Assembly: GCA_015059495.1 (NCBI GenBank)
Contig: SVAI01000001.1
Location: 565,525-629,524 of the forward strand
Source of the DNA: Bacillota bacterium
Lineage (GTDB): Bacteria; Bacillota_I; Bacilli_A; RF39; UBA660
Length of the DNA: 64,000 nucleotides
Direction of reading: 5' to 3'
Shown here: one piece after another, positions 16,375 through 57,047 of the stretch
Numbering within the stretch: position 1 is the first letter of the stretch
Layout: each line of letters opens with the position of its first letter
The notes under the pieces: generated by a model
Told to the model about the DNA's origin: nothing
The model's database searches: none
The model's input: only the letters and a program-made list of their open reading frames with translations
Translations under genes and position numbers: made by a program

Positions 16375-16461
16375 GTATATCACTAACCTTGCCTTAATAA
16401 GGTTATCACAAATTATACATTTAATAAATAATCAAAATTATATTTTACACAATTATTTACA

Positions 16462-17304: not shown

Positions 17305-17344
17305 TAATAAAAAAACAACAAAAGAAGTAGATTACTCTACTTCT
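17305..17344 (-). terminator. Terminator of the GH5 fusion gene
   Basis: Hairpin agaagtag..ctacttct overlapping the stop codon, then a U-run on the minus strand. Confidence 0.5.
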
Positions 17345-20949: not shown

Positions 20950-21034
20950 ACAAATCACTCTTCATTCTATGACATTATATCATACAGAATAACTTTTATA
21001 CAATTTAATTTAAAAAAAATATTAGGATATTATC

Positions 21035-36069: not shown

Positions 36070-36486
36070 CTAACTTAAGGCAACACTTTCTAAGAAGAAA
36101 TAGTCATTATTATCAAAATCACATACAAATAAATTACTGTATTTACTTAAATATTTAATGAATGCTGGTTTAATATTATTACTATCAATTCTAATAAATG
36201 AATTATTAATAGTAATTCTAGTTTCTTCTCTATCCAAATAATTATTATAATAATGATTATTCATAAACTTAGTATAAAATAAATTAGTTTTATAAGTATT
36301 AAATATACTATTATTTAATACCTTCTTATTAATAGGTTTAATAACACTATAATAAATCTTATCATATATTTTATAATTACTCCTATCACTATAATAAATA
36401 TCACTAAAAAATTTATATAAATTATAATCGTTATTAGATATATTAATTAATTTATTATTAATATCAAATAAATAAAAATGTCTCAT
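36070..36486 (-). CDS. Hypothetical N/Y-rich protein (138 aa)
   Basis: ORF only. Confidence 0.3.
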   Translation of the reverse strand: MRHFYLFDINNKLINISNNDYNLYKFFSDIYYSDRSNYKIYDKIYYSVIKPINKKVLNNSIFNTYKTNLFYTKFMNNHYYNNYLDREETRITINNSFIRIDSNNIKPAFIKYLSKYSNLFVCDFDNNDYFFLESVALS

Positions 36487-36543
36487 ATTTTCACCTATTT
36501 AATAATAACAAAATAATCATAAAAATATTGTCAAAAAAAAGTA

Positions 36544-37302
36544 TTATTTAATCATAAATAATACTTTAATAATATAATCAAACTGTTCCATAAATATAAA
36601 TATTATAAATACACTTATGATTAAAAATGGACCAAAAGGAATTTCCTTTTCTTGTTTTTTTAATACATAATAAGTAGCATAAGGCAAAGCCATAAAAGAA
36701 CCTAGAACTATAGATGTAAGACCAAGTCTAATACCAAGTACTACACCCATAAATGATGCTAACTTAACATCACCCCATCCAAGTGATTCTCTTTTAAAAA
36801 CTTTATCTCCTGCTAACTTTATTAATAGTAAGAATAATACTAATAATACTCCACTAATTAAAGCATTAATAAATCCATTTAATCCAAAGTATATAAACTT
36901 TAATACCAATATTAATATTACACATATATATAATGGATAATCTAATATAACTAAATATTTAAAATCACTTACAAATATAATTAGTACTAAAGAAGCAATT
37001 ATTAAATATGCATATAATTCATAACTAAATCCATATAAATAATATCCTAAGGCAAATATAATACCAAGTGATATTTCACTTAATAAATTAACTATAGATA
37101 TCTTATTCTTACAATATCTACATTTACCACCTAAAAATATATATGAAAATATAGGTATTAAATCCAATGCTTTTAAAGTTGTATGACAATTATCACAATA
37201 TGATCTACCTTTAACAATAGATATATCATTAGATAATCTAAGTGCTAAGCATGTATAAAACGATGCTAAAACTGCACCAAGTACAAAAAATAATACTAAC
37301 AT
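36544..37302 (-). CDS. Type IV prepilin peptidase (A24 family; PilD/ComC-like)
   Basis: N-terminal tetra-Cys zinc finger (CDNCHTTLKALDLIP...CRYCKNKI) followed by a polytopic peptidase domain with the conserved acidic residues. Confidence 0.75.
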   Translation of the reverse strand: MLVLFFVLGAVLASFYTCLALRLSNDISIVKGRSYCDNCHTTLKALDLIPIFSYIFLGGKCRYCKNKISIVNLLSEISLGIIFALGYYLYGFSYELYAYLIIASLVLIIFVSDFKYLVILDYPLYICVILILVLKFIYFGLNGFINALISGVLLVLFLLLIKLAGDKVFKRESLGWGDVKLASFMGVVLGIRLGLTSIVLGSFMALPYATYYVLKKQEKEIPFGPFLIISVFIIFIFMEQFDYIIKVLFMIK

Positions 37303-37309
37303 ACTAACC

Positions 37310-38929
37310 TCACATTGAAATTGATTCATACATATTAAACATTGGAACTAATATTGAAATTACGATGATACCAACTATTCCAGCTAGCATAACAATCATA
37401 ATTGGCTCAATTAAACTCTTTAATGTACCAATGATTGTTCTATGTTGTTCTTGGAAGTGATGTGCAACTGTACCCATCATTTCAGCTAACTGACCAGTAG
37501 ATTCACCTGTAACAATCATGTAATAAGCAACATCTGGAACAGCCCATTGATCTTTAAATGCTTCAGATATCTTATCACCAGCAGCAATGTTATTAACTGT
37601 ATTAACCATTATTTCTTTATATATTTCATTGTTAGTAATCTTACTTAAGATATCAATACTTTCAGTTATTTGTACATTATTTCTAAGTAATGATGAGAAT
37701 GTTTTAGAAAATATTGTCATTTCATTATAAATAATAATATTACCAATAACAGGCATATGCATTAAAGCAATTTGCATATATCGTCTAAATGATTTAACTT
37801 TCTTAAACATAAATACTATTAATATTATTATAAGCACTGCTGTTATAAATATTTTAATACCATTAGCTTTAATATAATCAGATAAATTTAATAATGTTAA
37901 TGTTAAACCAGATAACTCAACATCCATTGATTTATAAATATCACTAAATTGTGGAATAACATACAATAAGATAAATCCAACAACTGTTAATGCAAATAAT
38001 GTAACAATAACTGGATAAGTCATAGCACTAACCATATCTTTTCTTGTTGTTTCAATATCAGTGTAATAATCTATCATATCTTCTAATGTTTCTTCTAACT
38101 CACCTGTTGCTTCAGCAGCTTTTAACATGTTAATTAAAAGTGGTGGGAAAATATTACCTTGCTTTTCCATAGCCTCTGAGAACGCAGCACCCATAGTAAG
38201 TTCATATACAATTGATTGATAAATACCTAACTTAGACTTATTCTTTGTTGACTGATTCATAATAATCTTCATTGCTTCAGTTAATGTAATACCTGCTTTA
38301 ATATATGTAGATAACTGAGTTAAAAAGAATATTACATCTTTATTTTTAAATTTTGATTTAAATAAAGATTTTTGTCCATACAACAAATCTATTAATTGAT
38401 TATTTTCTATATAAAAAGGTTCATTACCTTCATTTAACAAATATGAGTTAACATCTAATTTAGAAAAACCATATAATCTACCAGTTACAACTTTTTTATT
38501 AGGAGTAAGTGCTTTATATACATACATCTTACCCTTAACAGTATCAGTTATTTCTTCACCTTTTTTAAGTTCTTCTTGTAATAATTTCTTTTTCTCTTCT
38601 ATTTCTTCTAATTTTTTACCAGAAACTTCTTTTGGAGCACCCATATCAGAATTAAGCATCTTCCAAATCTTAGCTAAAATACTAGGTTTTTCAGCATTAG
38701 GATCAACTGCTTGTTTTGTTGATTGATATACTTTATCAACTTTACTACTAGTCTTAGCAAATATACCTGCTAAAGGTTTAAAGATAAAACCAAATACAGT
38801 TTTTAAAGTTAAAATAGCATATTTAAAAATTAAACCAAATGACTCAAAAATATCATCAAAAATAGTATTTTCTTCAGTTTTAACAACTTTTTTAACGTTA
38901 TTAATTTTTGCACCCTTTTTATCAGCCAT
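37310..38929 (-). CDS. Type II secretion system F-family platform protein (PilC/ComGB-like) with a long N-terminal extension
   Basis: T2SSF domain (…LTQLSTYIKAGITLTEAMKIIMNQ…AAEATGELEETLEDM…) and three TM segments. Size 539 aa. Confidence 0.7.
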   Translation of the reverse strand: MADKKGAKINNVKKVVKTEENTIFDDIFESFGLIFKYAILTLKTVFGFIFKPLAGIFAKTSSKVDKVYQSTKQAVDPNAEKPSILAKIWKMLNSDMGAPKEVSGKKLEEIEEKKKLLQEELKKGEEITDTVKGKMYVYKALTPNKKVVTGRLYGFSKLDVNSYLLNEGNEPFYIENNQLIDLLYGQKSLFKSKFKNKDVIFFLTQLSTYIKAGITLTEAMKIIMNQSTKNKSKLGIYQSIVYELTMGAAFSEAMEKQGNIFPPLLINMLKAAEATGELEETLEDMIDYYTDIETTRKDMVSAMTYPVIVTLFALTVVGFILLYVIPQFSDIYKSMDVELSGLTLTLLNLSDYIKANGIKIFITAVLIIILIVFMFKKVKSFRRYMQIALMHMPVIGNIIIYNEMTIFSKTFSSLLRNNVQITESIDILSKITNNEIYKEIMVNTVNNIAAGDKISEAFKDQWAVPDVAYYMIVTGESTGQLAEMMGTVAHHFQEQHRTIIGTLKSLIEPIMIVMLAGIVGIIVISILVPMFNMYESISM

Positions 38930-39890: not shown

Positions 39891-40024
39891 TAAATTCCCT
39901 CCTTTATAATTTTATAAGACTCGCCTTTAAGGTGGTATTAACTACTCTTTAACCTTTTCAGTGCGGTTTTAAAGAAAGCCTTTAAAACATATAAAATTCT
40001 ATCAAATATCTAACAAAAAGTCAA
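39891..40024 (-). promoter_or_regulatory. rplU promoter (TTGACT-17-TAGAAT at 39996-40024) plus a structured leader of about 100 nt (possible L21-leader autoregulatory element)
   Basis: Near-consensus sigma-A promoter. The leader ggctttctttaaaaccgcactgaaaaggttaaagagtagttaataccaccttaaaggcgagtc is GC-enriched and stem-forming, ahead of an AGGAGGG RBS. Firmicute rplU operons are known to carry an L21 leader. Confidence 0.4.
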
Positions 40025-40058
40025 TAAATAAAAGAAAAGAATAGCATATTTGCTATTC
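40025..40058 (-). terminator. Terminator of the DUF285 gene at 40058-42673
   Basis: Hairpin gaatagca-tatt-tgctattc overlapping the TAG stop, then a U-run on the minus strand. Confidence 0.5.
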
Positions 40059-42673
40059 TATGTAGTCTTTAAAGTAAAATATCCCGGACTTGATGTTCCA
40101 CCATCCACTTTAGCATATTTTGCAGTATCCGCAGTAGATGAATAAGAAGTTCCAGCACTACCCCTAAGATAATTATGTTTACTAAACACAATCTTAGTTA
40201 ATAAACTTTCCGGAACACTCCATGAACTTCCAACATATATAGTTCTCATATTATTAATATTATAGAACATTCCATCTATTTTAGTAACTTTATTAATATT
40301 AAAAGAAGATAGATCAAGTGTTGTTAATGCTGAGCAGCCATTAAACATATTATTCATACTAGTTACAATTTCAGTGTTAAAACTACTAATATTTAAATTA
40401 CTTAAACTACTCATATCTTTAAACATAGCTTCCATATATTTTGTCTTAGCAGTATTAAAATGACTTAAATCAAGGGCAGTTATTAGAGTTACACCACTGA
40501 ACATTTCAACCATATTTGTTACATTAGATGTATTAAAACTACTAATATTTAAACTTGTTAAACCACTCATACCACTTAACATATTTCTCATATTAGTTAC
40601 TTTCGCAGTATTAAAATGGCTTAAATTTAAACTACTAATCTTATTATCATTTCTAAACATATATGACATGTCAGTTACCCTTGAGGTGTCAAAACTACTA
40701 ATATTCAAATTAGTTAAATTAGTCATACCACTAAACATGTAATGCATATCACGCACTTTAGACGTATTAAAATTTCTTAAATCCAAACTTGTAATTTTAG
40801 ATAATCCTTCAAACACTCCTTGCATATATATAACATTAGAAGTATTAAAATTAGATACATCAAGTGAATTTAAATTTTTACAATAACTAAACATTTCCGT
40901 CATATTGGTTACATTCGAAGTATCTAAAAAACTTAAATCAATATGAGTTATGCCACTATGTGAAAACATTCTATTCATGCTAGTTACATTTGATGTATTA
41001 AAATTAGATAAATCAACAGTTTCAATATTTTCACAAAATTCAAACATAGCAGTCATGTTAATTACATTTGAAGTATTTATACGGCTTAAGTTAATACTTT
41101 GTAATTTACTCATTCTAGAAAACATATAAGACATATCTATAACGTTAAAAGTGTCAAAATTAGAAATATCAAGATCAGTTAAACCAGAAGAGTCATAAAA
41201 CATATAAGACATATCAGTAACATTTGAGGTATTAAAACTACTTACATTTAAATCAATTAACTTATAAGTATATTCAAACATACTCGACATACTCTTAACA
41301 TTTGAGGTATCAAAATTTAATAAATTTAATTCTTTAATTTCACTACAATAATAAAACATATATTTCATATCTTCCACACTAGATGTAACAAAACTACTCA
41401 CATCTAATGTACTGAGATTGGTTAGCCCCATAAACATACCAGCCATATTAGTTACATTTGAAGTATCAAAATTATGCAAATTCAATTGAGTTAATTGAGG
41501 AGACAAGTCATAACATCCAGAATTACAACCAATTTCAGCGCCATTAAAATGATGAAAAAGATAACCTGAATTACTATTACTATCTTCTAAAGTTGTACCT
41601 GTGTAAACAGCAAACATAAGATTCATATCTACAGTTTCAGAAGTATTAATATGACTTAAATCTATGTTATATAGATTTGTTAAATTTCTAAACATACTTG
41701 ATGCATCTCTATTTAGCATTACTTCATTAGCTTTAGAATATAAATATATAGTTCCTTCATCATACCAAGCAATCACTTCTACATCTGAATGTTCATCAGA
41801 AACAACTCTATTATTTTCAGGAATAACAACTTCACCCTGAACAAATTCAATATTAATAATATTAGTATCTATAATAAATTCATACATATTTGCTGCCATA
41901 AAATCATTGTAAGATCTTAAAAATAGCTCATAATATTCGCTATAGTCATAAAATGGATTTTGAGCTTCTTCAGAATTAAAATACTCATATTCTTCTTCAT
42001 AATCACTCTTTACCTCATTATATTCATCTAAAAATTCTTGAGAAGGAACATCTCCAGCTAATTCTTTAATAATTTGATTAAATTCAGATCCCTTAACCAA
42101 AGTAGCAATGTCACTTGTTTTTTTATTAACAGTATTTACTGTAACCTTTGAATAAAAAGTTTTTTCTTCGACTTGATTAGCTTTTGCATCATAATCTATC
42201 CACATAATAAGATTAAAAGATTTACTTCGACTTGGTTGTAATATACCGGTACTAATAGTCTTAGATGATATTGCATTATCATTAACATAAATACTTGAAC
42301 TATTTTCAGATAAAGTTCCTAATATTTTAGAAGCGCCACCATCTAGTTTATATCTAACAGCATTAAGATCCATTGTTGAACCGGTTAATGTTTCAATATT
42401 AATATAATAGTCCATAGTTTGATTACAAATATTAGTTATTGAAAAAGTATATGGTTCAAGCTTTTCTGCCTTACTTTCTTTCATAGGTAAAGCGGATAGT
42501 AATCTAATATCATTTGCATCTTCAAAAGCAACTTTAAAACAATTAGTTCCAAAAGCATTAGAACCATCTTGTGATACATTAAAAATATAGTACGCATAAG
42601 ATAAACCAATAGAAATACTTAAAATCAAAAGTATTCCAATAACAAGAATTAAAACTCTCTTTTTTTTATTCAT
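40058..42673 (-). CDS. Secreted DUF285/BspA-like repeat protein (871 aa) with a SipW-type signal and TasA-like N-terminal domain
   Basis: N-terminus MNKKKRVLILVIGILLILSISIGLSYAYYIFNVSQDGSNAFGTNCFKVAF...PYTFSITNICN...NLIMWIDYDA. More than 20 tandem repeats of about 22 aa (LDxSxFNTSNVTxMxxMF). C-terminus ...RGSAGTSYSS...YAKVDGG..SPGYFTLKTT. Confidence 0.7.
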   Translation of the reverse strand: MNKKKRVLILVIGILLILSISIGLSYAYYIFNVSQDGSNAFGTNCFKVAFEDANDIRLLSALPMKESKAEKLEPYTFSITNICNQTMDYYINIETLTGSTMDLNAVRYKLDGGASKILGTLSENSSSIYVNDNAISSKTISTGILQPSRSKSFNLIMWIDYDAKANQVEEKTFYSKVTVNTVNKKTSDIATLVKGSEFNQIIKELAGDVPSQEFLDEYNEVKSDYEEEYEYFNSEEAQNPFYDYSEYYELFLRSYNDFMAANMYEFIIDTNIINIEFVQGEVVIPENNRVVSDEHSDVEVIAWYDEGTIYLYSKANEVMLNRDASSMFRNLTNLYNIDLSHINTSETVDMNLMFAVYTGTTLEDSNSNSGYLFHHFNGAEIGCNSGCYDLSPQLTQLNLHNFDTSNVTNMAGMFMGLTNLSTLDVSSFVTSSVEDMKYMFYYCSEIKELNLLNFDTSNVKSMSSMFEYTYKLIDLNVSSFNTSNVTDMSYMFYDSSGLTDLDISNFDTFNVIDMSYMFSRMSKLQSINLSRINTSNVINMTAMFEFCENIETVDLSNFNTSNVTSMNRMFSHSGITHIDLSFLDTSNVTNMTEMFSYCKNLNSLDVSNFNTSNVIYMQGVFEGLSKITSLDLRNFNTSKVRDMHYMFSGMTNLTNLNISSFDTSRVTDMSYMFRNDNKISSLNLSHFNTAKVTNMRNMLSGMSGLTSLNISSFNTSNVTNMVEMFSGVTLITALDLSHFNTAKTKYMEAMFKDMSSLSNLNISSFNTEIVTSMNNMFNGCSALTTLDLSSFNINKVTKIDGMFYNINNMRTIYVGSSWSVPESLLTKIVFSKHNYLRGSAGTSYSSTADTAKYAKVDGGTSSPGYFTLKTT

Positions 42674-42686
42674 CTGCCACTCCTCC

Positions 42687-44987
42687 TCATACAGTCTTTA
42701 AGGTTAAGTACCCAGGTTTATTATTAGCTGGATCATCTACACGAGCATAAGTTCCGGAAGTTTTACTAGAATTATATACAGTACCAGCTCCACCAACAAT
42801 ATTAGTTAAATTTTTAAAAACATTTGAAAACTTAGATAAAGTAGAACTTTTCCAATTAGCACCAACATAAATAGTTTTCAAACTACTACCTGAACTAGAG
42901 CCCTCAAACATACTACTTCCCTGCGTAACACTACTTGTATCAAAACTACTTAAATCTAAAGTCACAATACTATCCATTTTTGCAAACATAGAAGACATAC
43001 TTGTAACTTTTGAAGTATCGAAACTACTTACATTCAAATTAACCAATCCACTAGCGCCATTGAACATGCTTTCCATAATTCTAACATTAGATGTATTAAA
43101 AAAACTTAAATCAAGAGACTCTAACCTTGTTAAATCACTAAACATTTCATTCATATATATAACATTAGATGTATCAAAATGATCTCCAAAATTAATTGAA
43201 GTTAACAAAGACATTTTAGAAAACATTTTCATCATACTTTGTACACTCGAAGTATTAAAATATGATAAATCTAATGTTGTTAACTTACCACATTCGCTAA
43301 ACATACCCGACATATCAATTACACTAGAAGTATTAAATGAGGAAAAATCAATTGATTCTAGATTACAACCTTTAAACATATAATCCATATAAAGTACATT
43401 AGACGTATCAAAATTAGAAATATCTAGCATTGACATATTTAAACCAGAAAACATATTACCCATATCAACAACTTTTGATGTATTAAAACTGCTAACATCT
43501 AACGAGGTTATTGATGAATTTGCAAACATATAGCGCATACCTTTAACATTCGATGTATCAAAATTGCTTATATCAACTGAAGGTACATGTAATTTATAAA
43601 ACATACACGACATATTTGTTACATTCGAAGTATCAAATTTACTTAAATCCAATTGAAATTGCCATGATGAACTATCAAACATATGCGCCATATTTACTAC
43701 CTGTGATGTATCAAAATTTGACAAATCTGGTGCATAAAGGCCATTAATATTTGAAAACATAAATGACATATCTGTTACACTTGATGTATCAAAATGGCTT
43801 ACATCTATTTTTGAAAACGAAGAATTATAAAACATTCCCATCATATTTTTAACATTTGAAGTATCAAAATCTGACAATTCTAAATCAGTTAAATAATAAT
43901 TCTTATAAAACATAAATGACATATTTTCTGAATAAGAAGTATCAAATTTACTAAAATCAATATCTTCTAATACTTGTAACGCTGCAAACATATAAGAAGA
44001 ATCAATAGTTGCAAATTTTTCATCAACAGTATATATATAAATAGTGTCATCATCTAACCACATTATTATATCGTTTTTAGAATCATCACTAGATATTTTT
44101 TCACTCTGCATTTCAGTAATATTTTCTGGTAAAACATCAGCCATAACAATATGTTTAACTACTCTATCGCTATGAGTCCAATAAATACTTTCAACATTAG
44201 TATTATAAGTTAACGCAAGTTCATCACAACTATTGTTTGCTGATGCAATAATGGAAATATACTCATTCCAATCTATGCTGCCATTACTTATTGATGAGTA
44301 ATCTCCATTACAAATGGCGATTGACAGTTCCCTTTTAGTATTATAATCATTTATTTCATCTTGAGTTGGATTAAAGCCAGCCAACTTTTTTATAGCCTTA
44401 TTAATTTGAAATCCTGATGCTAATTTTGAATTCAATTCAGCTCTTGCACTAACCACAACCTTAGATACAAACATTTTATTTCCAGATTGTTCATATGTTG
44501 CATCTTCATCAATCCATGCTTTAATTTGAAACGATTTTTCTTCACCCGCTGATATATAGCCTGTTCCAACTTTTTTTGATGAGATTGCATTACTATTAGC
44601 ATAATAATCTAGTCCATTATCTTCTAAGCTACCCAGAATCGCTGACTCATCATTATCTAATTTAACTCTTATTGCATCCAAATCCATAGTATTATTCTCT
44701 AAAGTTTCAATATTTATATTATAGGCCATATCATAACTACATACATTTTTTATAGAAAAGGAAAATGGCACAATCTCTTGTGCTTCTTCTTCACTAATAG
44801 GAATAGCATCACCAATATTTAATGCATCCCCTTCGTTAAAAGATAATCTAAAACATTCACCAACAATAGCATTATAACCACTTTGAGATATACCAAACAT
44901 ATAATAAGCATAAGAAGCACTAACAATAAAACATAGCACAAGCATTATACTTAAACACAACAAAAAGATCTTATACTTACCCTTCAT
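42687..44987 (-). CDS. Secreted DUF285/BspA-like repeat protein (766 aa) with a SipW-type signal and TasA-like N-terminal domain
   Basis: N-terminus MKGKYKIFLLCLSIMLVLCFIVSASYAYYMFGISQSGY...PFSFSIKNVC...QIKAWIDEDA. DUF285 repeats follow. C-terminus GGAGTVYNSS..YARVDDPANNKPGYLTLKTV. It is separated from the previous gene by only 13 nt. Confidence 0.7.
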   Translation of the reverse strand: MKGKYKIFLLCLSIMLVLCFIVSASYAYYMFGISQSGYNAIVGECFRLSFNEGDALNIGDAIPISEEEAQEIVPFSFSIKNVCSYDMAYNINIETLENNTMDLDAIRVKLDNDESAILGSLEDNGLDYYANSNAISSKKVGTGYISAGEEKSFQIKAWIDEDATYEQSGNKMFVSKVVVSARAELNSKLASGFQINKAIKKLAGFNPTQDEINDYNTKRELSIAICNGDYSSISNGSIDWNEYISIIASANNSCDELALTYNTNVESIYWTHSDRVVKHIVMADVLPENITEMQSEKISSDDSKNDIIMWLDDDTIYIYTVDEKFATIDSSYMFAALQVLEDIDFSKFDTSYSENMSFMFYKNYYLTDLELSDFDTSNVKNMMGMFYNSSFSKIDVSHFDTSSVTDMSFMFSNINGLYAPDLSNFDTSQVVNMAHMFDSSSWQFQLDLSKFDTSNVTNMSCMFYKLHVPSVDISNFDTSNVKGMRYMFANSSITSLDVSSFNTSKVVDMGNMFSGLNMSMLDISNFDTSNVLYMDYMFKGCNLESIDFSSFNTSSVIDMSGMFSECGKLTTLDLSYFNTSSVQSMMKMFSKMSLLTSINFGDHFDTSNVIYMNEMFSDLTRLESLDLSFFNTSNVRIMESMFNGASGLVNLNVSSFDTSKVTSMSSMFAKMDSIVTLDLSSFDTSSVTQGSSMFEGSSSGSSLKTIYVGANWKSSTLSKFSNVFKNLTNIVGGAGTVYNSSKTSGTYARVDDPANNKPGYLTLKTV

Positions 44988-45163
44988 ATAAACTCCTACT
45001 TGTTTTCATCGTGTTATTTTTATCATGTCTTACTTATTCTAACAAAAGTATATCATAACTACTCCATATATAAAAGAAAAAACGATAAGATTATAGAAAT
45101 TTTATTCGCTGTTTATAGAAATAAAAAAAGTAGCAATTATTAAATTGCTACTTTTTTGCTATT

Positions 45164-47005
45164 CTATTCATCTGGTATATCAGAAAAATATCCAGGTTGT
45201 CCTTCTTTATCTATAACAGCATATGTTACATCAACATTTCTAAAATTGTAAGTAGTTCCATTTTGACCTACTAAATTATTACATGAAGAGAACATACTAT
45301 CACTTGTAGTTATATTAGTATTATCCCATTTATCACTTACATATATAGTAGTTAAAGCACTCATATTAGAGAACATATGAGAAGTAGTAGTAACATTACT
45401 TGTATTAAACATTGTTAAATTTAACGTTTTAAGCTTATATGCTCCATCAAACATATAACCCATATCAGTTACATTTGATGTATTAAATTTTATACCTAAA
45501 TATATATCAGAAGCAGAACAATATCTAAACATATATGCCATATTAGTAACTTTTGATGTATCAAATTTATCCCCTAAGTCTAAATTACTAATAGAATTTA
45601 ATCCATAGAACATATTAGACATATCAGTTACATTTGATGTATTAAATTTATCCCCTAAATCTAAAGAAGTTAATTTATTTAATGAATTAAACATATGATT
45701 CATATCAGTTACATTTGAAGTATCAAACTTATCTCCAAAATTTAAAGTAGTTAACTTAACAGCATTACCAAACATAGTAGCCATATTAGTAACTTTTGAT
45801 GTATCAAACTTATCTCCTAAATCTAATGAAGTTATAGCTTTTAATCCACTAAACATATTAGACATATCAGTTACATTTGAGGTATCAAAATAATTACCTA
45901 AATCTAAACTAGTAATAACGTTTAACCCTGAAAACATAGATTTCATAGTGTTTACATTTGATGTATCAAACTTATCTCCTAAATCTAACTCTTGTAAACT
46001 ACTTGATCCAAAGAACATATAAGCCGTATTATTCATATTTGATGTATCGAAATTATCACCTAGATTTAAATGCTCTAATGCAGCATTAAGTGCAAACATA
46101 GTTTGTGCATTTACTACCTTAGAACTATCAAATTCACTAACATCAATATTTTTTATAGCAGACATTCTATAAAATATTTGATTTGAAGAACGATTATAGA
46201 ATATTTTACTTGCTTCAGAATAATAATAAACTATATTAGTATCACTATCTAACCATGCATAAACAGGATAACGTGAAGTACTTAAAGCAATATCAGTTGT
46301 ATTAACTCCTTCTGGAGGTGGAGTTAAACTCTTTTCAAACCCAACTATTGTTTCATCATAAGTAGTGGATTCATTAACGTCAGGATTTACCAATTTTTTT
46401 ATTCTAACATTAACAACAGAACCACCAGCTAATTCAGCTTCTTTATATGCAGGATTTAAAGTTGAAGCAACAACAACTTTAGATTCAAATGTTTTATCAG
46501 CACTTTGTTCAACAGTAGAATCTTCATCAACCCATAATTTTAAATTAAATGTTTTACTACTATTACCCATCAAAGAACCATTAGAAATAGTCTTAGATAA
46601 TAATACATTTTGATTAACAAAAGTAGCAGGATCATTATCTTCAATAGAACCTAAAATTTGTGAAAAATGATTATCTAATTTAAATCTAATTGCATTAATA
46701 TCTATATCACTAGTATTTAATTCCTCTATATTAATTTTATAATCAATAGATGAATTACATACATTACTAACAGTAAATGTATATGGCACTAAATCACCAA
46801 TATCTCTTTCACTCATAGGATAAGAATTTTCTAAACTAATAGCATTACTATCAGTATATTCTATTCTAAAACAATCACTGCTAAAAGTATTGTTTCCTTC
46901 TTGAGAAACACTAAAAATATAAAATGCATAAGTTAATCCAATTATTAAAGATAAAACTAGTAAAATACCAACTGATAATAATATAATCTTATTTTTCTTC
47001 TTCAT
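45164..47005 (-). CDS. Secreted DUF285/BspA-like repeat protein (about 613 aa) with a SipW-type signal and TasA-like N-terminal domain
   Basis: N-terminus MKKKNKIILLSVGILLVLSLIIGLTYAFYIFSVSQEGNN...PYTFTVSNVCN...NLKLWVDEDS. The repeats here are a variant form (LDLGDKFDTSNVTDMSNMF). C-terminus ...GQNGTTYNF..YAVIDKEGQPGYFSDIPDE. Confidence 0.7.
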   Translation of the reverse strand: MKKKNKIILLSVGILLVLSLIIGLTYAFYIFSVSQEGNNTFSSDCFRIEYTDSNAISLENSYPMSERDIGDLVPYTFTVSNVCNSSIDYKINIEELNTSDIDINAIRFKLDNHFSQILGSIEDNDPATFVNQNVLLSKTISNGSLMGNSSKTFNLKLWVDEDSTVEQSADKTFESKVVVASTLNPAYKEAELAGGSVVNVRIKKLVNPDVNESTTYDETIVGFEKSLTPPPEGVNTTDIALSTSRYPVYAWLDSDTNIVYYYSEASKIFYNRSSNQIFYRMSAIKNIDVSEFDSSKVVNAQTMFALNAALEHLNLGDNFDTSNMNNTAYMFFGSSSLQELDLGDKFDTSNVNTMKSMFSGLNVITSLDLGNYFDTSNVTDMSNMFSGLKAITSLDLGDKFDTSKVTNMATMFGNAVKLTTLNFGDKFDTSNVTDMNHMFNSLNKLTSLDLGDKFNTSNVTDMSNMFYGLNSISNLDLGDKFDTSKVTNMAYMFRYCSASDIYLGIKFNTSNVTDMGYMFDGAYKLKTLNLTMFNTSNVTTTSHMFSNMSALTTIYVSDKWDNTNITTSDSMFSSCNNLVGQNGTTYNFRNVDVTYAVIDKEGQPGYFSDIPDE

Positions 47006-47116
47006 AATTATCACCAATACTTTATTCTTTAATTATATTTTAACACAACAAATATAAATTATAAACAATAAATACATACTTTACACTCATAAATATAAAT
47101 AATTACAAATTAGATA

Positions 47117-47145
47117 TTGCATTTTTAAAAATAATGGTTTATAAT
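47117..47145 (+). promoter_or_regulatory. Sigma-A-type promoter for tRNA-Arg
   Basis: TTGCAT-17-TATAAT, about 20 nt upstream of tRNA position +1. Confidence 0.5.
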
Positions 47146-47165
47146 TATTCATGTCAGTTGATTAT

Positions 47166-47242
47166 GTTTCCGTAGCTCAGCTGGATAGAGCAATCGCCTT
47201 CTAAGCGATCGGTCAGGTGTTCGAATCACCTCGGAAACACCA
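47166..47242 (+). tRNA. tRNA-Arg (anticodon UCU), with genomically encoded CCA
   Basis: Cloverleaf read by hand. Acceptor stem gtttccg/cggaaac, D-arm gctc-agctggata-gagc, anticodon stem atcgc/gcgat with loop cUUCUaa, variable loop cggtc, T-arm aggtg-ttcgaat-cacct, discriminator A, CCA. Confidence 0.85.
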
Positions 47243-47253
47243 CTGTTAAAATT

Positions 47254-47283
47254 AAAGAACCATTTGGTTCTTTTTTCTTTTAT
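47254..47283 (+). terminator. Rho-independent terminator after tRNA-Arg
   Basis: Hairpin aaagaacc-attt-ggttcttt followed by TTTTCTTTT. Confidence 0.6.
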
Positions 47284-50192: not shown

Positions 50193-51695
50193 TTACCAAC
50201 TCATTCCACCATTTTCACATAGACCACTACCATCACTATAAACAGAGCACGATTCAAAATTAAATTTTTCATGATAATAGTCATTTGTCTGACAATAAGT
50301 AGTACTAGCACCACCTACATTTAAAAGTTGTCTTTGTTCTTCACAAATTTCCATAGAATCATATGGAATAAAAGATTTAACATGAGCTTTCCAAACTCCA
50401 TTCTCTAAATAACACTGTGGAGTAACAAGAGACCCCATAAATCCTTTTCTTTCCATACACCTATTATAATTATCAAAATCTTGATCAAATATTACATATG
50501 GATAATAAGATAATGTATATTCACTAACAGATACTTTTTCATATCCATAAGTAATATATTCATAATCCGCACTAAGGCAACCAAATCTTTGCAAACCATA
50601 TATTTCGTATGAACAAGTAAATGGCTTATAAGAATTAACTTCATCATTAAACGCTTGAGTTATAGGTCCAAAAGTATGATAAGTATCATAATAATCTTCA
50701 TCTTCACTACGATTATAATAAGGTCGTTTACCAAAACAGAATTCATCACCATTATTATAAATGCAAACCTCTGACTCAAGACCTTGATAACCAACAATCA
50801 TGTCTTCTCCTTCGTCACTTACATGAACAGCAGCACAATCTCCACCATATTCTTCAAATAAATCTTCATTTTTACTCATACACTCGGACAAGGAATAAAA
50901 CTTTTCATCATTATCATAATACTCATAATAATATTGACCATTTTCTTCTTTACAATCTTCATAATACATTTGAGTACACTCATCTAAAGTTGGAAGATTT
51001 TCACTCCTAAAATGCCTTACATATACATCCTTTAAATTAGTATAATACGCTATAGCATCTTGCTTTAAATATACTTTACGATTAGTTTTACTAATAAAGT
51101 CACTTAAACTATTACCAGATTTATTCATATCATATTTATCTTGTGATGTAACTAAGAATTTAGATAAAACCCTAGTAGTATCATATGTTTTAATTAAATT
51201 AACACTAAATTCAAACTTAGCACCTTGGTTATAATCTTGATTATGATTTTTAGCTAAGAATGTTACTTTTAATGTATAATTATGAGTTTGTCCAACGTCA
51301 ATACCAACATTAATAACAAACTGACCATTCACAGTTGGACATTCTCTTTGTGCAACATTAGCACCATTATCACTGATTAATTCACATACCAATTCATCAG
51401 TGTGGTCAAAAGTATTAACAATATCATTTAGATAAATATCATATAAAGCATATACATTACCTGTATTAGTAACACTAAACTTCTTTTCAATAAAATCCCC
51501 AGGAAGCATATTCCCAGCTATACCTTCTACACTACCATCTTCATAAGTAACTTCCATATTACCTGTTGTAATAACATTAGCATTAGCCTCACTATTAACA
51601 CTAGCAGTAAAATAAGCATAAGAAGAAACAGAAATAGTTATAACAATAGCGATAGCTACTATTACTACAAGAGGCTTAAAATATTTATTATTCAT
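50193..51695 (-). CDS. Secreted protein with a SipW-type signal and TasA/camelysin-like N-domain, plus a Cys/Tyr/acidic-rich C-terminal domain (paralog of 15067-16374)
   Basis: N-terminus ...ISVSSYAYFTASVNSEANANVITTGNMEVTYEDGSV...PGDFIEKKFSVTNTGNV...HNYTLKVTFL is co-linear with 15067-16374 (…HNYTLKISFL…). The C-terminal 300 aa have about 16 Cys. Confidence 0.6.
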   Translation of the reverse strand: MNNKYFKPLVVIVAIAIVITISVSSYAYFTASVNSEANANVITTGNMEVTYEDGSVEGIAGNMLPGDFIEKKFSVTNTGNVYALYDIYLNDIVNTFDHTDELVCELISDNGANVAQRECPTVNGQFVINVGIDVGQTHNYTLKVTFLAKNHNQDYNQGAKFEFSVNLIKTYDTTRVLSKFLVTSQDKYDMNKSGNSLSDFISKTNRKVYLKQDAIAYYTNLKDVYVRHFRSENLPTLDECTQMYYEDCKEENGQYYYEYYDNDEKFYSLSECMSKNEDLFEEYGGDCAAVHVSDEGEDMIVGYQGLESEVCIYNNGDEFCFGKRPYYNRSEDEDYYDTYHTFGPITQAFNDEVNSYKPFTCSYEIYGLQRFGCLSADYEYITYGYEKVSVSEYTLSYYPYVIFDQDFDNYNRCMERKGFMGSLVTPQCYLENGVWKAHVKSFIPYDSMEICEEQRQLLNVGGASTTYCQTNDYYHEKFNFESCSVYSDGSGLCENGGMSW

Positions 51696-51802: not shown

Positions 51803-53578
51803 TTATCTCTTAATCTTATATGGGAATTGACTAGATCCATCTCCACCTATAACTCTAACATCATTTTTTAAATACAATGTTGGATATACTGAATCATCTT
51901 CAATAATAGAAGTAGGAAGAATTCTTTTATTAATAGTTAACCCTAAAGAATTATCAGTATTACTACCATAAGGTGTAAGAACCCATTTTAGTACATCCCT
52001 TTCATTTAACCATGACTTAGGACAACTAGTCTTAACATATGCTGATAAAGTAGGACCTAAACAATTAATATCTCCCTGAGCATAAGCAAAATCACTTAAA
52101 TACGGTAACGCTATCTTACCTATCCATGAAGCATTTCTATTTAAATCTTTTATTCTACTTCCAGTACCATTATATTCATAACCTAGATTTATACTACGTT
52201 CATGATTATACATTGTTCCAAAACTTATTTTAGTATAATTTTCACTTGAAGGTGTAGCACCAACACTCCAGTTTACAGGTTGAATCATCTTTTCATATGT
52301 TTCATTAATAATTTTAGTCGGCATTCTTGCGTCTTTTTGATTATAAGATCCATTAAACCATTTACCATCTGTTCCAATTGTTATATTGCCTAGATAATCA
52401 GTATTTAATTCTCTCATAAGATCTGCACCAGTATATTGATTACCATCAGTATCAGTAGCTTCACCCCACTGATTATACCCTTTACCACCATTCTCTGTAA
52501 TCAAAGAAGTATCCCATGCATAATCTCCTAATGGTTCGGCTCTAATTATTTTAACTCTGGAATCCTTGTTATATTTATCATCTTCTACATTATTAAATAC
52601 ACCAACTATTCTCCACTTTTCACAAGTCGAATCGTTCATTTGATCTGCTACTGTAGTAGTACAATTAAAATAAATATAATTCTTAGGATCTGTACCTATA
52701 TATCTTAAATTATTATCACTAGTACGGAAATCACCATATGTATCAGAACCATCATATTTTAAATCAGGAGTTCCTAAACCTAAAATCTTAGTAATTAATG
52801 CAGATGAAGAATCTTTCTTAACTAATGCAACATTAGAATAATATCTTTTAGTAACTTTCTTTTGACATATTCCTCCAACATCTTGATAAGCACTTGGACA
52901 TTTAAGGACTCCATTTTTCTTAACTTTAGTAATGGTCTTATCAGCATCAATTACTTCTTCTTCATATTCTATTATTAATCTATAAGTATTATCTTCAGTT
53001 CCACTTAATGTTCTTAAATAATAAATCATAGATGGTGTCATTTGATTTAAAGCATCAAACTTAATTCTATTAGCTTCTAATGACATATTACAAGAATTAT
53101 CTGAACTTAACTTACCAGCTCTAGTAGTACACTTTTTAATATCATTAACATTATAATTAGTAATATAAATATTCTTAACTTTAAATGTACTTCTTAATTG
53201 TTCACAAAAGGATAACTTAACACCTTCATTAGTTTTAGAAAATTCAGGTACATCTTTAACAGATATATTAGCATCTATATTATATAGTATTGGATTATTA
53301 CAACTAAATACTTGAACCTTTTTACCACCATGAACATACTTATCTCCATCTCTAACTTCAGGTCCTAAATAATAATCTATATAATCTTCTAAATTTAAAT
53401 TAGTTAAAAAATCTTCAATATAATAAGTTCTATAAATATATGATATATCATTATAAGAAGCTCTTCTTTTATTATTAGATAAAACATTAACAAAAGATTG
53501 ATATACCATAACAAGTCCAAGTGATAATATGACAATAACTACAATGGTTTCAACAAAAACAAATCCCTTATTCTTCAT
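51803..53578 (-). CDS. Large (591 aa) prepilin-type N-terminal-cleavage/methylation-domain protein (minor pilin or tip-adhesin candidate)
   Basis: MKNKGFVFVETIVVIVILSLGLVMVYQSF matches the class III (type IV pilin) signal G|F-x-x-x-E with a hydrophobic helix. The long C-terminal domain is Cys-containing. Confidence 0.55.
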   Translation of the reverse strand: MKNKGFVFVETIVVIVILSLGLVMVYQSFVNVLSNNKRRASYNDISYIYRTYYIEDFLTNLNLEDYIDYYLGPEVRDGDKYVHGGKKVQVFSCNNPILYNIDANISVKDVPEFSKTNEGVKLSFCEQLRSTFKVKNIYITNYNVNDIKKCTTRAGKLSSDNSCNMSLEANRIKFDALNQMTPSMIYYLRTLSGTEDNTYRLIIEYEEEVIDADKTITKVKKNGVLKCPSAYQDVGGICQKKVTKRYYSNVALVKKDSSSALITKILGLGTPDLKYDGSDTYGDFRTSDNNLRYIGTDPKNYIYFNCTTTVADQMNDSTCEKWRIVGVFNNVEDDKYNKDSRVKIIRAEPLGDYAWDTSLITENGGKGYNQWGEATDTDGNQYTGADLMRELNTDYLGNITIGTDGKWFNGSYNQKDARMPTKIINETYEKMIQPVNWSVGATPSSENYTKISFGTMYNHERSINLGYEYNGTGSRIKDLNRNASWIGKIALPYLSDFAYAQGDINCLGPTLSAYVKTSCPKSWLNERDVLKWVLTPYGSNTDNSLGLTINKRILPTSIIEDDSVYPTLYLKNDVRVIGGDGSSQFPYKIKR

Positions 53579-55194: not shown

Positions 55195-56264
55195 TAACCA
55201 ACTACTTTATTTCTACCTGTTTCTTTAGCTTTATATAAATTATCATCTGCTACTTTAACATTATCTTCTATAGTCTTTTTAGGATTAAATTTAGCTACTC
55301 CCATCGAAACAGTAATATTAATTTTTGTCTTACCGGCTTTAAATTTAATTTTAGATATTTCTTCTCTCATTTTATCAAGACGACGTTTAAAATCCTTGCT
55401 ACCAACCTTTGGATCACCAACGATTAAAAACTCTTCGCCACCCCATCTACCAACTTTAATTAAATCTCTATTTAATTCTAAGAACTTATTAGCTAAAGCT
55501 TGTAATATTTCGTCTCCAGCATTATGTCCATATGTATCATTAACATTTTTAAAATGATCTAAATCAGCAATTGCTATATAAAAACTTTTCTTAGCATCCA
55601 TCATTTCAGTTAATATTTCATTTAAACCATATCTATTATATAAAGTTGTAAGTTCATCAAAGTCTGCTTTTCTCTTTAATTTTCTCTTATCTTCATTATT
55701 AATCATTGATGATAAAATACAAAACGATGATACCGCAGCCATAGATACCGAACTGTTTAACGCATGTATTGTATATACTGAAAAAGTAGGATTAATTAAA
55801 CCTGATGAATATCTTGTATAGTGACATATATAACTTAAAAAATAATATGTAATTATAAATAATGCGCCAGCTAATATAATATGAAGTGATTTATTTTTAG
55901 AATTATCAGGAATATAAAATGGTAAAAAGAATATACATAATATACCATATAAGTATTGTTGAAATCCATAATCCCAACCCATAACTATCGTAGCAATAAT
56001 CATAAATACATATAATTGAGTTAATAATAAATATAATCCCATAGATCTTTTATTTTGTTCATATAAATGATATATAAATAAATTACATAATAAACAAGCA
56101 GAATTAACTACAAACATTACCTTAGATTCATAATAAAAAATATAGCCAAAAATAAAATCTACTATAATTATTAAAAAAAGGCATACATAAAACATCAATG
56201 ATATTTTATTTTCTTTTTCTTCTCTTCTATGCCATAAATATTTTAATCTTGCAATTGGATTCAT
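55194..56264 (-). CDS. Membrane-bound diguanylate cyclase (GGDEF domain)
   Basis: Six N-terminal TM helices, then a GGDEF domain with an active-site GGEEF (RWGGEEFLIVG) and a conserved …DHFKNVNDTYGH… segment. No EAL or HD-GYP domain. Confidence 0.8.
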   Translation of the reverse strand: MNPIARLKYLWHRREEKENKISLMFYVCLFLIIIVDFIFGYIFYYESKVMFVVNSACLLCNLFIYHLYEQNKRSMGLYLLLTQLYVFMIIATIVMGWDYGFQQYLYGILCIFFLPFYIPDNSKNKSLHIILAGALFIITYYFLSYICHYTRYSSGLINPTFSVYTIHALNSSVSMAAVSSFCILSSMINNEDKRKLKRKADFDELTTLYNRYGLNEILTEMMDAKKSFYIAIADLDHFKNVNDTYGHNAGDEILQALANKFLELNRDLIKVGRWGGEEFLIVGDPKVGSKDFKRRLDKMREEISKIKFKAGKTKINITVSMGVAKFNPKKTIEDNVKVADDNLYKAKETGRNKVVG

Positions 56265-56306
56265 TTTTTCACTTCCTGTACTAATATTATATAATGTAAT
56301 CTAGTT

Positions 56307-57047
56307 TTATTCAAACTTCTTTTTTAATACCGAATATTCACTTTTATTATTAAAAAAATGATAAGTATCCTGATACATATTAGATATATCATTACTATTT
56401 AAATATTTAATATTTCTATAAGATATATTATATAAATATCTTTCTAAATAGAATTTATTTTCAATATACTTAATAGATTTAATATAACTAATTAATCTAT
56501 AAAGTAAAAACACAATTATATATATTATATTAATTTTCAAATTAATGCAATTAATAATGAATAAAAATAAACTAATTATAGATATTACTAACATAATTTT
56601 ATTAACTAATTTATATGGATAAATATATTCTAATAATAAATGTATTATCTTTTCTCCATCTAATCCTATCATGGGTATTAAATTAAATATTATTAAAGAT
56701 ATATTATTACTTATAAATAAATTATAAGTATTATTACTGATTAAATTATATTTATATAATTTATAAAAAATAATAAATAATAATAATTGATTTAATATAC
56801 CACCTAAAGATATTAATAACTCACTAAATATATTATGATTAACTAAACTATTATATTTACTTATACCTCCAAAAGCATATATTTTAATACTTATAATATC
56901 TTTATTAAATAATTTAATAAAAAATATATGTCCTAATTCATGTATTATTATAATTAAATATAATATTAATATACTTTTAAAATAACCACATAAAAAAGAT
57001 AATATAAGTATTAAATAAAACGATATATCAAACTTTATAATCTTCAT
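56307..57047 (-). CDS. spoIVFB: Site-2 (M50) zinc metalloprotease, SpoIVFB-like pro-sigma-K processing enzyme
   Basis: HELGH zinc motif in TM helix 2 and a polytopic membrane topology. It sits directly downstream of a SpoIVFA-like gene, with a 20-nt overlap. Confidence 0.65.
   Translation of the reverse strand: MKIIKFDISFYLILILSFLCGYFKSILILYLIIIIHELGHIFFIKLFNKDIISIKIYAFGGISKYNSLVNHNIFSELLISLGGILNQLLLFIIFYKLYKYNLISNNTYNLFISNNISLIIFNLIPMIGLDGEKIIHLLLEYIYPYKLVNKIMLVISIISLFLFIINCINLKINIIYIIVFLLYRLISYIKSIKYIENKFYLERYLYNISYRNIKYLNSNDISNMYQDTYHFFNNKSEYSVLKKKFE

Follow-up and report, generated by a model that had tools for sequence, protein, structure and literature searches.

The 64-kb window analysed here, a stretch of 64,000 nucleotides from a Bacillota bacterium, contains three tandem genes for surface proteins of the PARCEL/DUF285 type (g1, g2 and g3), which probably occupy a recombination slot whose alleles are lost or swapped between strains. 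The slot lies between the promoters of two housekeeping genes, and in relatives it is either empty or filled with highly divergent alleles. Replacement of alleles seems to be the source of the variation, as opposed to slippage of repeats or integration directed by the tRNA, since the array is invariant within its own lineage while other haplotypes differ. The host has a small genome (~1.25 Mb contig) of ~25% GC and probably originates from the rumen. It appears to be a relative of the Mollicutes, because the nearest genome relatives found carry Tenericutes/Acholeplasmatales MAG labels.

The gene array and its repeat proteins

The open reading frames of g1, g2 and g3 are all intact and all lie on the minus strand (Table 1). 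Their lengths of 871, 766 and 613 aa agree with the initial annotation, which gave about 613 aa for the third gene; counted from an upstream TTG (47017) instead of the ATG, g3 encodes 617 aa. The spacers, described as 13 and about 175 nt long, measure 13 nt between g2 and g1 and 176 nt between g3 and g2. The count of three paralogs holds for the array itself but overlooked a fourth, g0, elsewhere in the window, whose architecture is like that of g1–g3; P0076 and P0040 are relatives of g0. An assembly artefact, raised earlier as a concern, is refuted, because the array is present at 99.9–100% identity and with zero indels in five other assemblies, several of which may stem from one sample or from related ones.

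The spacer between g2 and g1 has the ribosome-binding site of g1 directly past the stop codon of g2, and the two genes therefore probably form one operon. g3 is probably a transcription unit of its own, since a terminator-like hairpin follows it. The genes look expressed, and we infer both export and surface retention of their products.

All three proteins match, as had been proposed, DUF285 (PF03382) with 335, 278 and 191 bits for g1, g2 and g3 (E-values 1e-102, 9e-84 and 4e-57; cut-off 25 bits), and TIGR02167 with 406, 263 and 158 bits (cut-off 30). These profiles assign them to the PARCEL/DUF285/TIGR02167 leucine-rich-repeat (LRR) surface proteins, a known kind. There is nothing unusual about the repeat proteins as such, and the NCBI pipeline has given them a name: both g2 (MBE6158762.1) and g3 (MBE6158763.1) appear there as a “BspA family leucine-rich repeat surface protein”. 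g1–g3 contain no lipobox, in agreement with the initial annotation. Their membrane-targeting sequence, of the N-terminal kind found in PARCEL proteins, is a K-rich n-region followed by a hydrophobic segment of ~20 aa, a putative signal/anchor as judged by sequence. Occurrence of DUF285 beyond mycoplasma lipoproteins is less notable than first thought: TIGR02167 was originally named from Listeria, and Roske et al. 2010 (PMC2996958), whose examples of PARCEL proteins include Mycoplasma LppQ, LppC and MCAP_0720/0721, had already recorded topologies other than lipoproteins and a broad distribution across taxa. The contrast drawn with mycoplasmas is also softened by the apparent relationship of the host itself to Mollicutes.

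The AlphaFold2 model of g3 has a pLDDT of 80 overall and mostly 85–97 in the repeats, which form an LRR-type solenoid where every 27 aa contribute a single short strand. Foldseek ranks LRR proteins highest among the matches to this model, namely TLR13, a designed LRR protein, InlJ and PcpA, although global TM-scores are low for the multidomain model. A word-indexed homolog search returned nine fragments only.

The repeat unit had been described as 22 aa long and present in 20 or more near-identical copies per gene. The actual period is 25–27 aa (75–81 nt), and ~17, 13–14 and 10 units are counted in g1, g2 and g3 (16, 13 and 8 by TIGR02167), with a mean pairwise identity of 42–54% in amino acids and 57–65% in nucleotides. 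No two units are identical, the closest pairs reaching 84% in nucleotides (within g3) and 76% in amino acids. The longest exact direct repeat of the array, 32 nt, is in g3, and TRF calls a tandem array in g3 only and none in g1 or g2. The distinct repeat sub-type of the third gene was recognized correctly: its units are mostly of the 27-aa “LDLGDKFDTSNVTDM” form, and its C-terminus reads …GYFSDIPDE, with …GYFTLKTT in g1 and …GYLTLKTV in g2. Near-palindromic 14-mers number 5, 3 and 6 in g1, g2 and g3 versus 5.3±2.3, 3.0±1.7 and 2.7±1.5 in codon-shuffled controls, a simple test that gave no significant excess and differs from the published MEME palindrome method. A scan for inverted repeats found only a single long one.

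Table 1. Features of the array, its flanks and the related gene g0, in window coordinates
Feature	Position	Strand	Remarks
g0, fourth paralog, 627 aa	3335..5218	-	elsewhere in the window
L21 leader (RF00559)	39907..39978	-	conserved right flank
rplU promoter-like site	40024-39996		conserved right flank, with L21 leader
Terminator-like hairpin	40038..40059	-	over g1 stop codon/3' end; right edge of slot
Strain-variable slot	40046..47095	.	between tRNA promoter and rplU promoter; absent or replaced in relatives
g1, PARCEL/DUF285 surface protein, 871 aa	40058..42673	-	signal/anchor, N-terminal beta-sandwich, acidic/aromatic linker, ~17 LRR-type units (25-26 aa), C-terminal cap
g1 solenoid	40229-41671	-	counterpart of g3 solenoid
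g1 N-terminal module, aa 1-185	42119..42673	-	
g2-g1 spacer, 13 nt	42674..42686	-	after g2 TGA; holds GGAGGAG ribosome-binding site of g1
g2, PARCEL/DUF285 surface protein, 766 aa	42687..44987	-	~13-14 units, 25-27 aa
g2 solenoid	42918-43967	-	counterpart of g3 solenoid
g2 N-terminal module	44433-44987	-	counterpart of g1 module
Recombination breakpoint in g2	44450..44500	-	~codon 165-180, N-domain end; versus L013
Terminator-like hairpin, 15-bp stem and T-run	45124..45157	-	just 3' of g3
g3, PARCEL/DUF285 surface protein, 613 aa	45164..47005	-	10 units
g3 LRR-type solenoid, aa 284-560	45326..46156	-	AlphaFold2
g3 N-terminal module	46451-47005	-	counterpart of g1 module
tRNA-Arg(UCU)	47166..47242	+	conserved in all haplotypes, as are ~66-70 nt upstream

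A strain-variable slot between two housekeeping genes

Haplotypes were compared among contigs with an identical L21 or RRF protein. The three genes of the window recur in L001-4 and L006. L005 and L008 carry genes for 1000 and 944 aa together with a 69-aa remnant, which in L005 is an internally deleted g1-like C-terminus; L010 has genes for 647 and 862 aa. In L007, L009 and L023 the slot is empty and a 136-nt spacer takes its place. Flanks are 94–97% identical between haplotypes, homology breaks at 47095–47100 and at 40038–40119, and alleles at matching slot positions have 38–61% identity in the N-domain. Since the flanks are ~95% identical, some of the strains with other haplotypes may be sister species. 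The hairpin over the end of g1 marks the right edge of the slot, because cross-haplotype homology resumes there. The spacer of the empty sites is conserved among them and resembles none of the occupied haplotypes; it is therefore compatible both with an ancestral empty state and with a deletion.

The suggestion of a variable region with a variable surface-protein repertoire is borne out by these states of the slot, and the recombination tracts that the suggestion needed are also present. L013, with genes for 612+, 707 and 947 aa, is a mosaic: its identity to the window is 91–100% across g3 and as far as the end of the N-domain of g2, then drops to 60–70% at a sharp breakpoint in g2. The dN/dS ratio is 0.43 for g3, 0.04 for the g2 N-domain and 0–0.14 for neighbouring housekeeping genes, values that do not demonstrate diversifying selection because they are below 1 and relaxed constraint would yield the same.

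The following mechanism is proposed. Each protein begins with a putative Sec-type signal/anchor ending in the nearly invariant S-Y-A↓Y-(Y/W/F), followed by the beta-sandwich, a variable linker and an LRR-type solenoid of 10–17 units, which is closed by a conserved cap at the C-terminus. Ligand binding, as an adhesin, is the most likely role of the solenoid surface, and the most likely role of the N-terminal module is to retain or assemble the protein on the outside of the cell. Between strains, the content of the slot, which has the conserved promoter region of tRNA-Arg on one side and the rplU promoter and L21 leader on the other, would be lost or replaced by very divergent alleles through homologous recombination in the flanks, and crossovers would also take place inside the genes, at the conserved N-domain. 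The process would act on an evolutionary time scale and lead to a strain-specific surface repertoire, and the selective agent might be phage, a predator or host immunity.

The initial annotation expected variation in repeat number. A high-frequency contingency locus, where repeats and paralogs slip or recombine often and give size- or antigen-variable proteins within a population, would be in keeping with tandem paralogs that have internal tandem repeats, with the 32-nt exact repeat and the 81-nt units of up to 84% identity in g3, with an A8 tract in codons 2–5 of g1 and with the internally deleted remnant of L005; homopolymer tracts are also reported in some mycoplasma PARCEL genes by Roske et al. 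(PMC2996958). Yet the units are too diverged for this, with TRF arrays missing from g1 and g2, and the five assemblies of the window lineage, which represent two sub-lineages, have equal lengths, no indels and a single SNP in the array. In two g3 alleles with 94% identity, none of the 10 units is lost or moved, and each has its orthologue at the same position. The A8 tract and a (TA)5 are the only simple repeats, and the array contains no invertible element. A contingency locus is thus unlikely, and replacement of whole alleles over longer times is the preferred reading.

Less probable still, to the point of being very hard to sustain, is a genomic island inserted at the tRNA gene by site-specific integration of a prophage, ICE or similar element. 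The array had been said to lie head-to-tail upstream of the tRNA gene and to end at it, a classic landmark of acquired regions, and the tRNA gene does adjoin the array; the slot is polymorphic for presence and absence, PARCEL repeats are known from 108 phage records and the literature places PARCEL in the mobilome. However, g3 and the tRNA gene are divergent, with the 5' end of the array facing the 5' end of the tRNA gene at a distance of 160 nt (148 nt from the TTG), and since the genes are on opposite strands with their 5' ends facing, it is not the 3' end of the tRNA gene that borders the array. The slot begins 66–70 nt upstream of the tRNA gene, on its 5' side. The att-like duplication sought as a sign of integration is not present in the window, where the 3'-terminal 27-mer of the tRNA gene is single-copy when up to three mismatches are allowed. 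No direct repeats are found at the slot junctions, the empty site holds its own conserved 136-nt spacer, and no integrase or phage gene was recognized beside the slot when ORF translations were read by eye. GC content is flat, at 0.25–0.30 in the array and 0.19–0.32 elsewhere in the window (0.15 in the bin 56001–57000). A scan of viral contigs for the N-terminal module was negative, which argues against the island and also against reading the “fibre” of the initial annotation as a phage tail.

The locus is a clean natural example of surface diversification in a small-genome gut/rumen bacterium, since the slot between the promoters of two housekeeping genes is found empty or with two or three genes. 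It is a practical marker for strain typing and also accounts for breaks in metagenome assemblies at this place.

The N-terminal module and its possible relation to TasA

The N-terminal module of g1 consists of the K-rich n-region, the hydrophobic segment, an invariant S25-Y26-A27↓Y28-Y29 and a beta-sandwich of ~150 aa with conserved C45 and C83. The hydrophobic N-terminal segment is modelled as a helix (residues 3–34), and residues 24–42 have low pLDDT. The motif G-x-S-Y-A↓Y-(Y/W/F) is conserved at 90–94% among 122 family members. Proteins of 4,400 or more clusters (E<=1e-10) start with the module, and Pfam and NCBIfam contain no model for it; it is a large uncurated family placed ahead of many types of surface passenger. 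The module likely holds or assembles the protein at the surface, because g1–g3 have no C-terminal anchor.

The module appears to be distantly related to TasA/camelysin. g1–g3 do not match Peptidase_M73 (PF12389) at E<=0.01 or the SipW-type signal peptide model TIGR04088, and among 17 DUF285-associated (class-A) modules one matches PF12389, at E 0.14, and one TIGR04088, at E 0.15. The class-B modules, which comprise three non-DUF285 paralogs in the window (15067–16383 and 50193–51695 among them) and one close database homolog, do match PF12389 with 26–31 bits, above the cut-off of 22.5. Comparison of the two classes by hhalign gives a probability of 98% (E 2e-13) when the leader is included and of 74% (E 2.7e-5, 125 columns) when leader and motif are removed. 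Nothing meaningful came up when PDB sequences were searched, be it with the module of class B, with the combined profile or with the g3 repeats; the best match was an endoglucanase at E 0.03.

This relationship brings up the idea that the module is a TasA-type polymerization domain, cut in a SipW-like manner at A27↓Y28, with residues 28–38 acting as donor strand and the resulting fibres displaying the LRR solenoids. The conserved motif resembles the SipW type, and the Peptidase_M73 matches of class B, the profile–profile link and the missing C-terminal anchor are consistent with such a role. In TasA the donor strand is formed by residues 28–38, directly after the SipW site (PMC9674648), which is the region that falls within the low-pLDDT stretch here. 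Type IV pilus (T4P) genes are located near the array, and secretion of BsaA in C. perfringens depends on T4P genes (PMC11580942). Against it stand the failure of g1–g3 to match either model, the marginal E-values of the class-A members, and a passenger of 430–690 aa on each subunit, a feature foreign to the TasA fibres known so far. The window encodes neither a SipW nor an SPase I motif, and the ORFs neighbouring the L011 relative gave no hint of a dedicated peptidase. A TasA-type fibre is therefore doubtful. Just as speculative is its extension, that Mollicutes-related Bacillota might build sortase-independent fibres in which the module would be a donor-strand assembly domain and passengers (PARCEL LRR, Flg_new repeats, GH5 cellulase) would be interchangeable and exchanged among strains through crossovers where the module ends, with the neighbouring T4P machinery possibly aiding export.

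If the module proves to be an anchoring or polymerizing device, wall-bearing relatives of Mollicutes would have a way of displaying surface proteins that is new, and thousands of proteins named “hypothetical” or “BspA-like” could be better annotated.

Comparison with known surface-protein systems

With the PARCEL proteins (PMC2996958), g1–g3 share a motif of ~25 residues in variable-number tandem arrays where every unit is unique in sequence, an N-terminal membrane-targeting sequence, adjacent in-paralogs and strain- or taxon-specific repertoires, for which HGT or intragenomic shuffling was inferred. They differ in not being lipoproteins, which places them in topology category B of that work, and in carrying a leading conserved beta-sandwich module that is undescribed there. 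The published dyad symmetry of PARCEL coding DNA is not evident in g1–g3 by the 14-mer test.

BspA-like LRR proteins are likewise surface proteins of host-associated anaerobes with an LRR-type solenoid, and the structural matches of the g3 model are also LRR proteins. The repeats of g1–g3, however, match DUF285 and not the Pfam model LRR_5. True LRR_5 repeats are present in another protein of the window (17332–20958).

In TasA, camelysin and BsaA, as in the module, the leader ends in a small residue, an aromatic residue and Ala followed by aromatic residues, and the beta-sandwich begins directly after; non-DUF285 paralogs of the module pass the Pfam threshold and are tentatively connected to the DUF285-associated module by profile–profile comparison. 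The latter is nevertheless unrecognized by PF12389 or TIGR04088 and has two conserved cysteines (C45 and C83), and g1–g3 add a large passenger domain, with no sipW or tapA close by.

Capsule and O-antigen loci and S-layer cassettes are variable surface loci located between conserved housekeeping genes. The slot resembles them in its conserved flanks, divergent alleles, presence/absence states, mosaics and probable homologous recombination in the flanks. Unlike these loci, its cargo is not a biosynthetic cluster but one to three paralogous repeat-protein genes, and it possesses a conserved intragenic domain as a probable additional crossover point.

Gene array and repeat units

The three neighbouring surface-protein genes g1, g2 and g3 are real genes of a known and already annotated family. 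In the six-frame ORF listing of the window they are three co-oriented intact ORFs with spacers of 13 and 176 nt, as the initial annotation described, and the differing C-terminal endings, the absence of a lipobox and the distinct repeat sub-type of g3, with 27-aa 'LDLGDKFDTSNVTDM' units, were also borne out. All three match Pfam DUF285 (E 1e-102, 9e-84 and 4e-57 for g1, g2 and g3) and NCBIfam TIGR02167, presently titled 'PARCEL repeat-containing surface protein'. NCBI lists the same proteins for a MAG of a 'Firmicutes/Bacillota bacterium' whose longest contig measures 1,256,952 bp, and there g2 and g3 bear the name 'BspA family leucine-rich repeat surface protein'. A fourth paralog, g0, lies inside the window. 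As the tRNA-Arg gene is on the opposite strand, it is transcribed away from g3, and its 5' end is the one turned towards the array.

Features of the window and of related contigs (window coordinates unless a contig is named)
Feature	Coordinates	Strand	Remarks
g0	3335-5218	minus	fourth DUF285 paralog
g1	40058-42673	minus	871 aa, intact ORF
g2	42687-44987	minus	766 aa, intact ORF
g3	45164-47005	minus	613 aa counted from ATG, intact ORF
tRNA-Arg(TCT)	47166-47242	plus	ARAGORN and Rfam
Class B module protein	15067-16383	minus	leader and sandwich 'SYAYF...'; passes Pfam Peptidase_M73
Class B module protein	17332-20958	minus	1208 aa; module, GH5 cellulase, DUF285 repeats, BspA-type LRR_5
Class B module protein	50193-51695	minus	500 aa; missing from related strains L009, L019-L022
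Type IV pilus/ComG-like genes	36544-38929, 51803-53578, 58880-59479		PilC/GspF-like, prepilin peptidase, 199-aa pilin, 591-aa protein with pilin-like N-terminus
Sigma factor	1480-2172	plus	above NCBIfam SigK subfamily cut-off
M50 (SpoIVFB-like) and M23 gene pair	56307-57549	minus	
Weak SirA-like protein	36070-36486	minus	
69-aa ORF	L005 3675-3884; L008 3659-3868		upstream of the 1000-aa gene
440-aa module gene	L005 13476-14798; L007 7480-8802; L009 10416-11741		between PilD and SirA-like genes; window empty there (~36487-36543)
RelB/YafQ pair	L019 5232-5820; L020 2924-3512		absent from the window
P0076	L024 4001-5800		599-aa DUF285 protein, after pgsA

The repeats had been described as 20 or more near-identical 22-aa units per gene, which does not hold: the spacing of the motif anchors gives a period of 25-27 aa (75-81 nt in DNA), with about 17 units in g1, 13-14 in g2 and 10 in g3, and unit identity within a gene averages 42-54% for amino acids and 57-65% for nucleotides. 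The longest exact direct repeat within the 7-kb array is 32 nt, and TRF sees a tandem array in g3 only. In the full-length model of g3 (pLDDT 80) the solenoid is predicted with confidence, every 27 residues contributing a short strand; among PDB structures the model matches LRR proteins best. Codons 2-5 of g1 (MNKKKR) contain an A8 tract on the coding strand (42660-42667). Homopolymers at this position make some mycoplasma PARCEL genes phase-variable; no length difference was found among the assemblies compared.

Gene calls from JGI (L001, L002, L015 and L016) are a few residues longer than the table-11 ORFs (773 versus 766 aa for g2, 541 versus 539, 446 versus 429, and others). The seven extra residues of g2 are the exact read-through of its TGA stop (42687-42689), so JGI appears to have used genetic code 4. 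TGA does function as a stop codon in this organism, since it terminates 11 of 48 long ORFs and table 11 leaves the long ORFs uninterrupted.

A strain-variable slot

Related contigs were gathered by look-up of the exact L21 protein in JGI, ENA and Logan assemblies. Five of them (L001-L004 and L006) match the window at 99.9-100% identity along up to 13.9 kb, the whole array included, with no indel; the array is not an artefact and is stable within its own lineage. These five contigs split into two sub-lineages, which differ by 1 SNP in 29.6-47.9 kb, a stretch including the array, and by 72 SNPs in 47.9-57.8 kb (window 29588-57840 against L002, L003, L016 and L017). This contrast points to a tract that recently recombined or swept, with a putative edge near frr (~47.9 kb).

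Contigs with an identical L21 or RRF protein reveal other haplotypes, the differing content of which lies between frr/tRNA-Arg and rplU, in flanks 94.5-97% identical to the window. In place of g1-g3, L005 and L008 carry a 69-aa remnant and genes of 1000 and 944 aa, L010 carries genes of 647 and 862 aa, L007, L009 and L023 carry none, and in a fifth haplotype (L013/L014) the genes encode 612+, 707 and 947 aa. Homology stops at 47095-47100, 66-70 nt upstream of the tRNA. On the other side it returns at 40038-40119, where the terminator of g1 directly precedes the rplU promoter-like site and the L21 leader. The N-terminal domains of genes at corresponding positions are only 38-61% identical. The empty sites have in common a conserved 136-nt spacer, for which no similarity to the occupied haplotypes was found, and no direct repeats flanking the slot were found. 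The 69-aa ORF is an internally deleted copy of a g1-type last repeat and C-terminal cap, a footprint of an earlier deletion or rearrangement. Several contigs end at the slot, as expected where co-existing strains differ. This defined, recombining, presence/absence slot is new.

The tRNA had been regarded as the landmark of an acquired region, and the slot does end close to it. A tRNA-directed integrative island is argued against by the position of the slot on the 5' side of the tRNA, which itself is part of the conserved flank, and the flat GC content also counts against it; no integrase-like gene was recognised by eye among the ORF translations adjoining the slot, and no second, att-like copy of the tRNA-Arg 3' end was found in the window.

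Recombination within the slot is indicated by the L013/L014 allele, which shares 91-100% identity with the window from the g3 start across the spacer and as far as codon ~170 of g2. Near 44450-44500 the identity then drops sharply to 60-70% and remains there for all of the remaining g2 and g1. The drop marks a recombination breakpoint where the N-terminal domain ends. Between the same two strains, dN/dS is 0.43 for g3 (0.47 in its repeats), 0.04 for the N-domain of g2 and 0-0.14 for neighbouring housekeeping genes, while the ten g3 units are positionally orthologous, none being gained, lost or shuffled. Given the slot polymorphism, the mosaic allele and these orthologous units, the initial proposal of a surface repertoire that varies and recombines holds at the population level, whereas near-identical repeats changing copy number are unsupported as its engine.

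The RelB/YafQ toxin-antitoxin pair of two related contigs is inserted between a lysyl/asparaginyl-tRNA synthetase-like gene and a pilin-like gene.

The N-terminal module and its relation to TasA

The four DUF285 proteins (g0-g3) have in common an N-terminal module of ~185 residues, a leader and beta-sandwich referred to here as class A; related leader-and-sandwich modules ('SYAYF...', class B) occur in three further proteins of the window. In the AlphaFold2 model (pLDDT 82) a hydrophobic helix (3-34) and a beta-sandwich (40-181) are joined by a low-confidence stretch. Across 122 members the conserved residues are S25 (87%), Y26 (94%), A27 (90%), aromatic residues at 28-29, Q35 (79%), N39 (89%), C45 (95%), P63 (100%), N81 (100%) and C83 (95%). 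Against 1.84 billion cluster representatives the profile gives 8,458 matches with E<=1e-3, 4,398 with E<=1e-10 and 533 with E<=1e-30; among the best 150, a single 2,919-aa repeat protein does not have the module at its N-terminus. The 77 matches scanned against Pfam contain DUF285 (35/77), Flg_new (26/77), LRR_5, GH5 and further domains, while the module itself is covered by no Pfam model. This uncurated, TasA-related module, common to many other surface proteins, is new. The array proteins have no C-terminal anchor, so that only the module is a candidate for retaining or assembling them at the surface.

The 440-aa gene of related strains fuses the same module to Flg_new (Listeria-Bacteroides) repeats; its site is a further presence/absence slot, the second one that holds a surface protein with this module. 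The first 45 residues of P0076 are identical to those of g0, but the proteins diverge beyond the leader and the gene contexts differ, a pattern which hints that leaders or N-domains may be swapped between dispersed paralogs.

Class B modules exceed the Pfam threshold for Peptidase_M73, the TasA/camelysin family, and hhalign relates class A to class B with 98% probability, or 74% (E 2.7e-5) without leader and motif. In TasA, the donor strand comprises residues 28-38, directly after the SipW cleavage site (PMC9674648), and the cleavage site predicted here is A27|Y28. No direct match of class A modules to Peptidase_M73 or TIGR04088, and no sipW-like motif in the window, was found. That the module serves as a TasA-like fibre assembly device is thus considered unlikely and is not taken as a conclusion. 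The literature searched contains no mention of DUF285 together with TasA, SipW or camelysin. A further point in favour of a link to TasA is that efficient secretion of BsaA, a clostridial TasA relative, needs type IV pilus genes in C. perfringens (PMC11580942). PilC, PilD and pilin genes adjoin the DUF285 and TasA-like loci in the window, and by analogy a functional link between them is possible.

Host and comparison with PARCEL proteins

The nearest module-carrying genome relatives are MAGs labelled 'uncultured Tenericutes' and 'Acholeplasmatales'. The latter is named Tb.RUG.207, which we take to stand for 'rumen uncultured genome', and the former originates from sheep-rumen run SRR873603 (Shi et al. 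2014). These labels and sources indicate that the organism is probably a wall-bearing relative of Mollicutes from the rumen, which undercuts the initial surprise at a 'mycoplasma' domain here. The window also encodes a SigK-like sigma factor, an M50/M23 pair and a SirA-like protein; genes of the sporulation type would not be expected where the longest contig of the genome is only 1.26 Mb.

The repeat region of g1 matches 108 phage records, while the N-terminal module was not found in viral contigs. DNA dyad symmetry in the repeat-coding sequence was the one published PARCEL hallmark not reproduced in a simple test. With this exception, the array repeats fit throughout the description of PARCEL proteins (Roske et al. 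2010, PMC2996958), which have 25-residue units, each of unique sequence, membrane targeting that includes non-lipoprotein topologies, adjacent in-paralogs, strain-specific repertoires and links to the mobilome.
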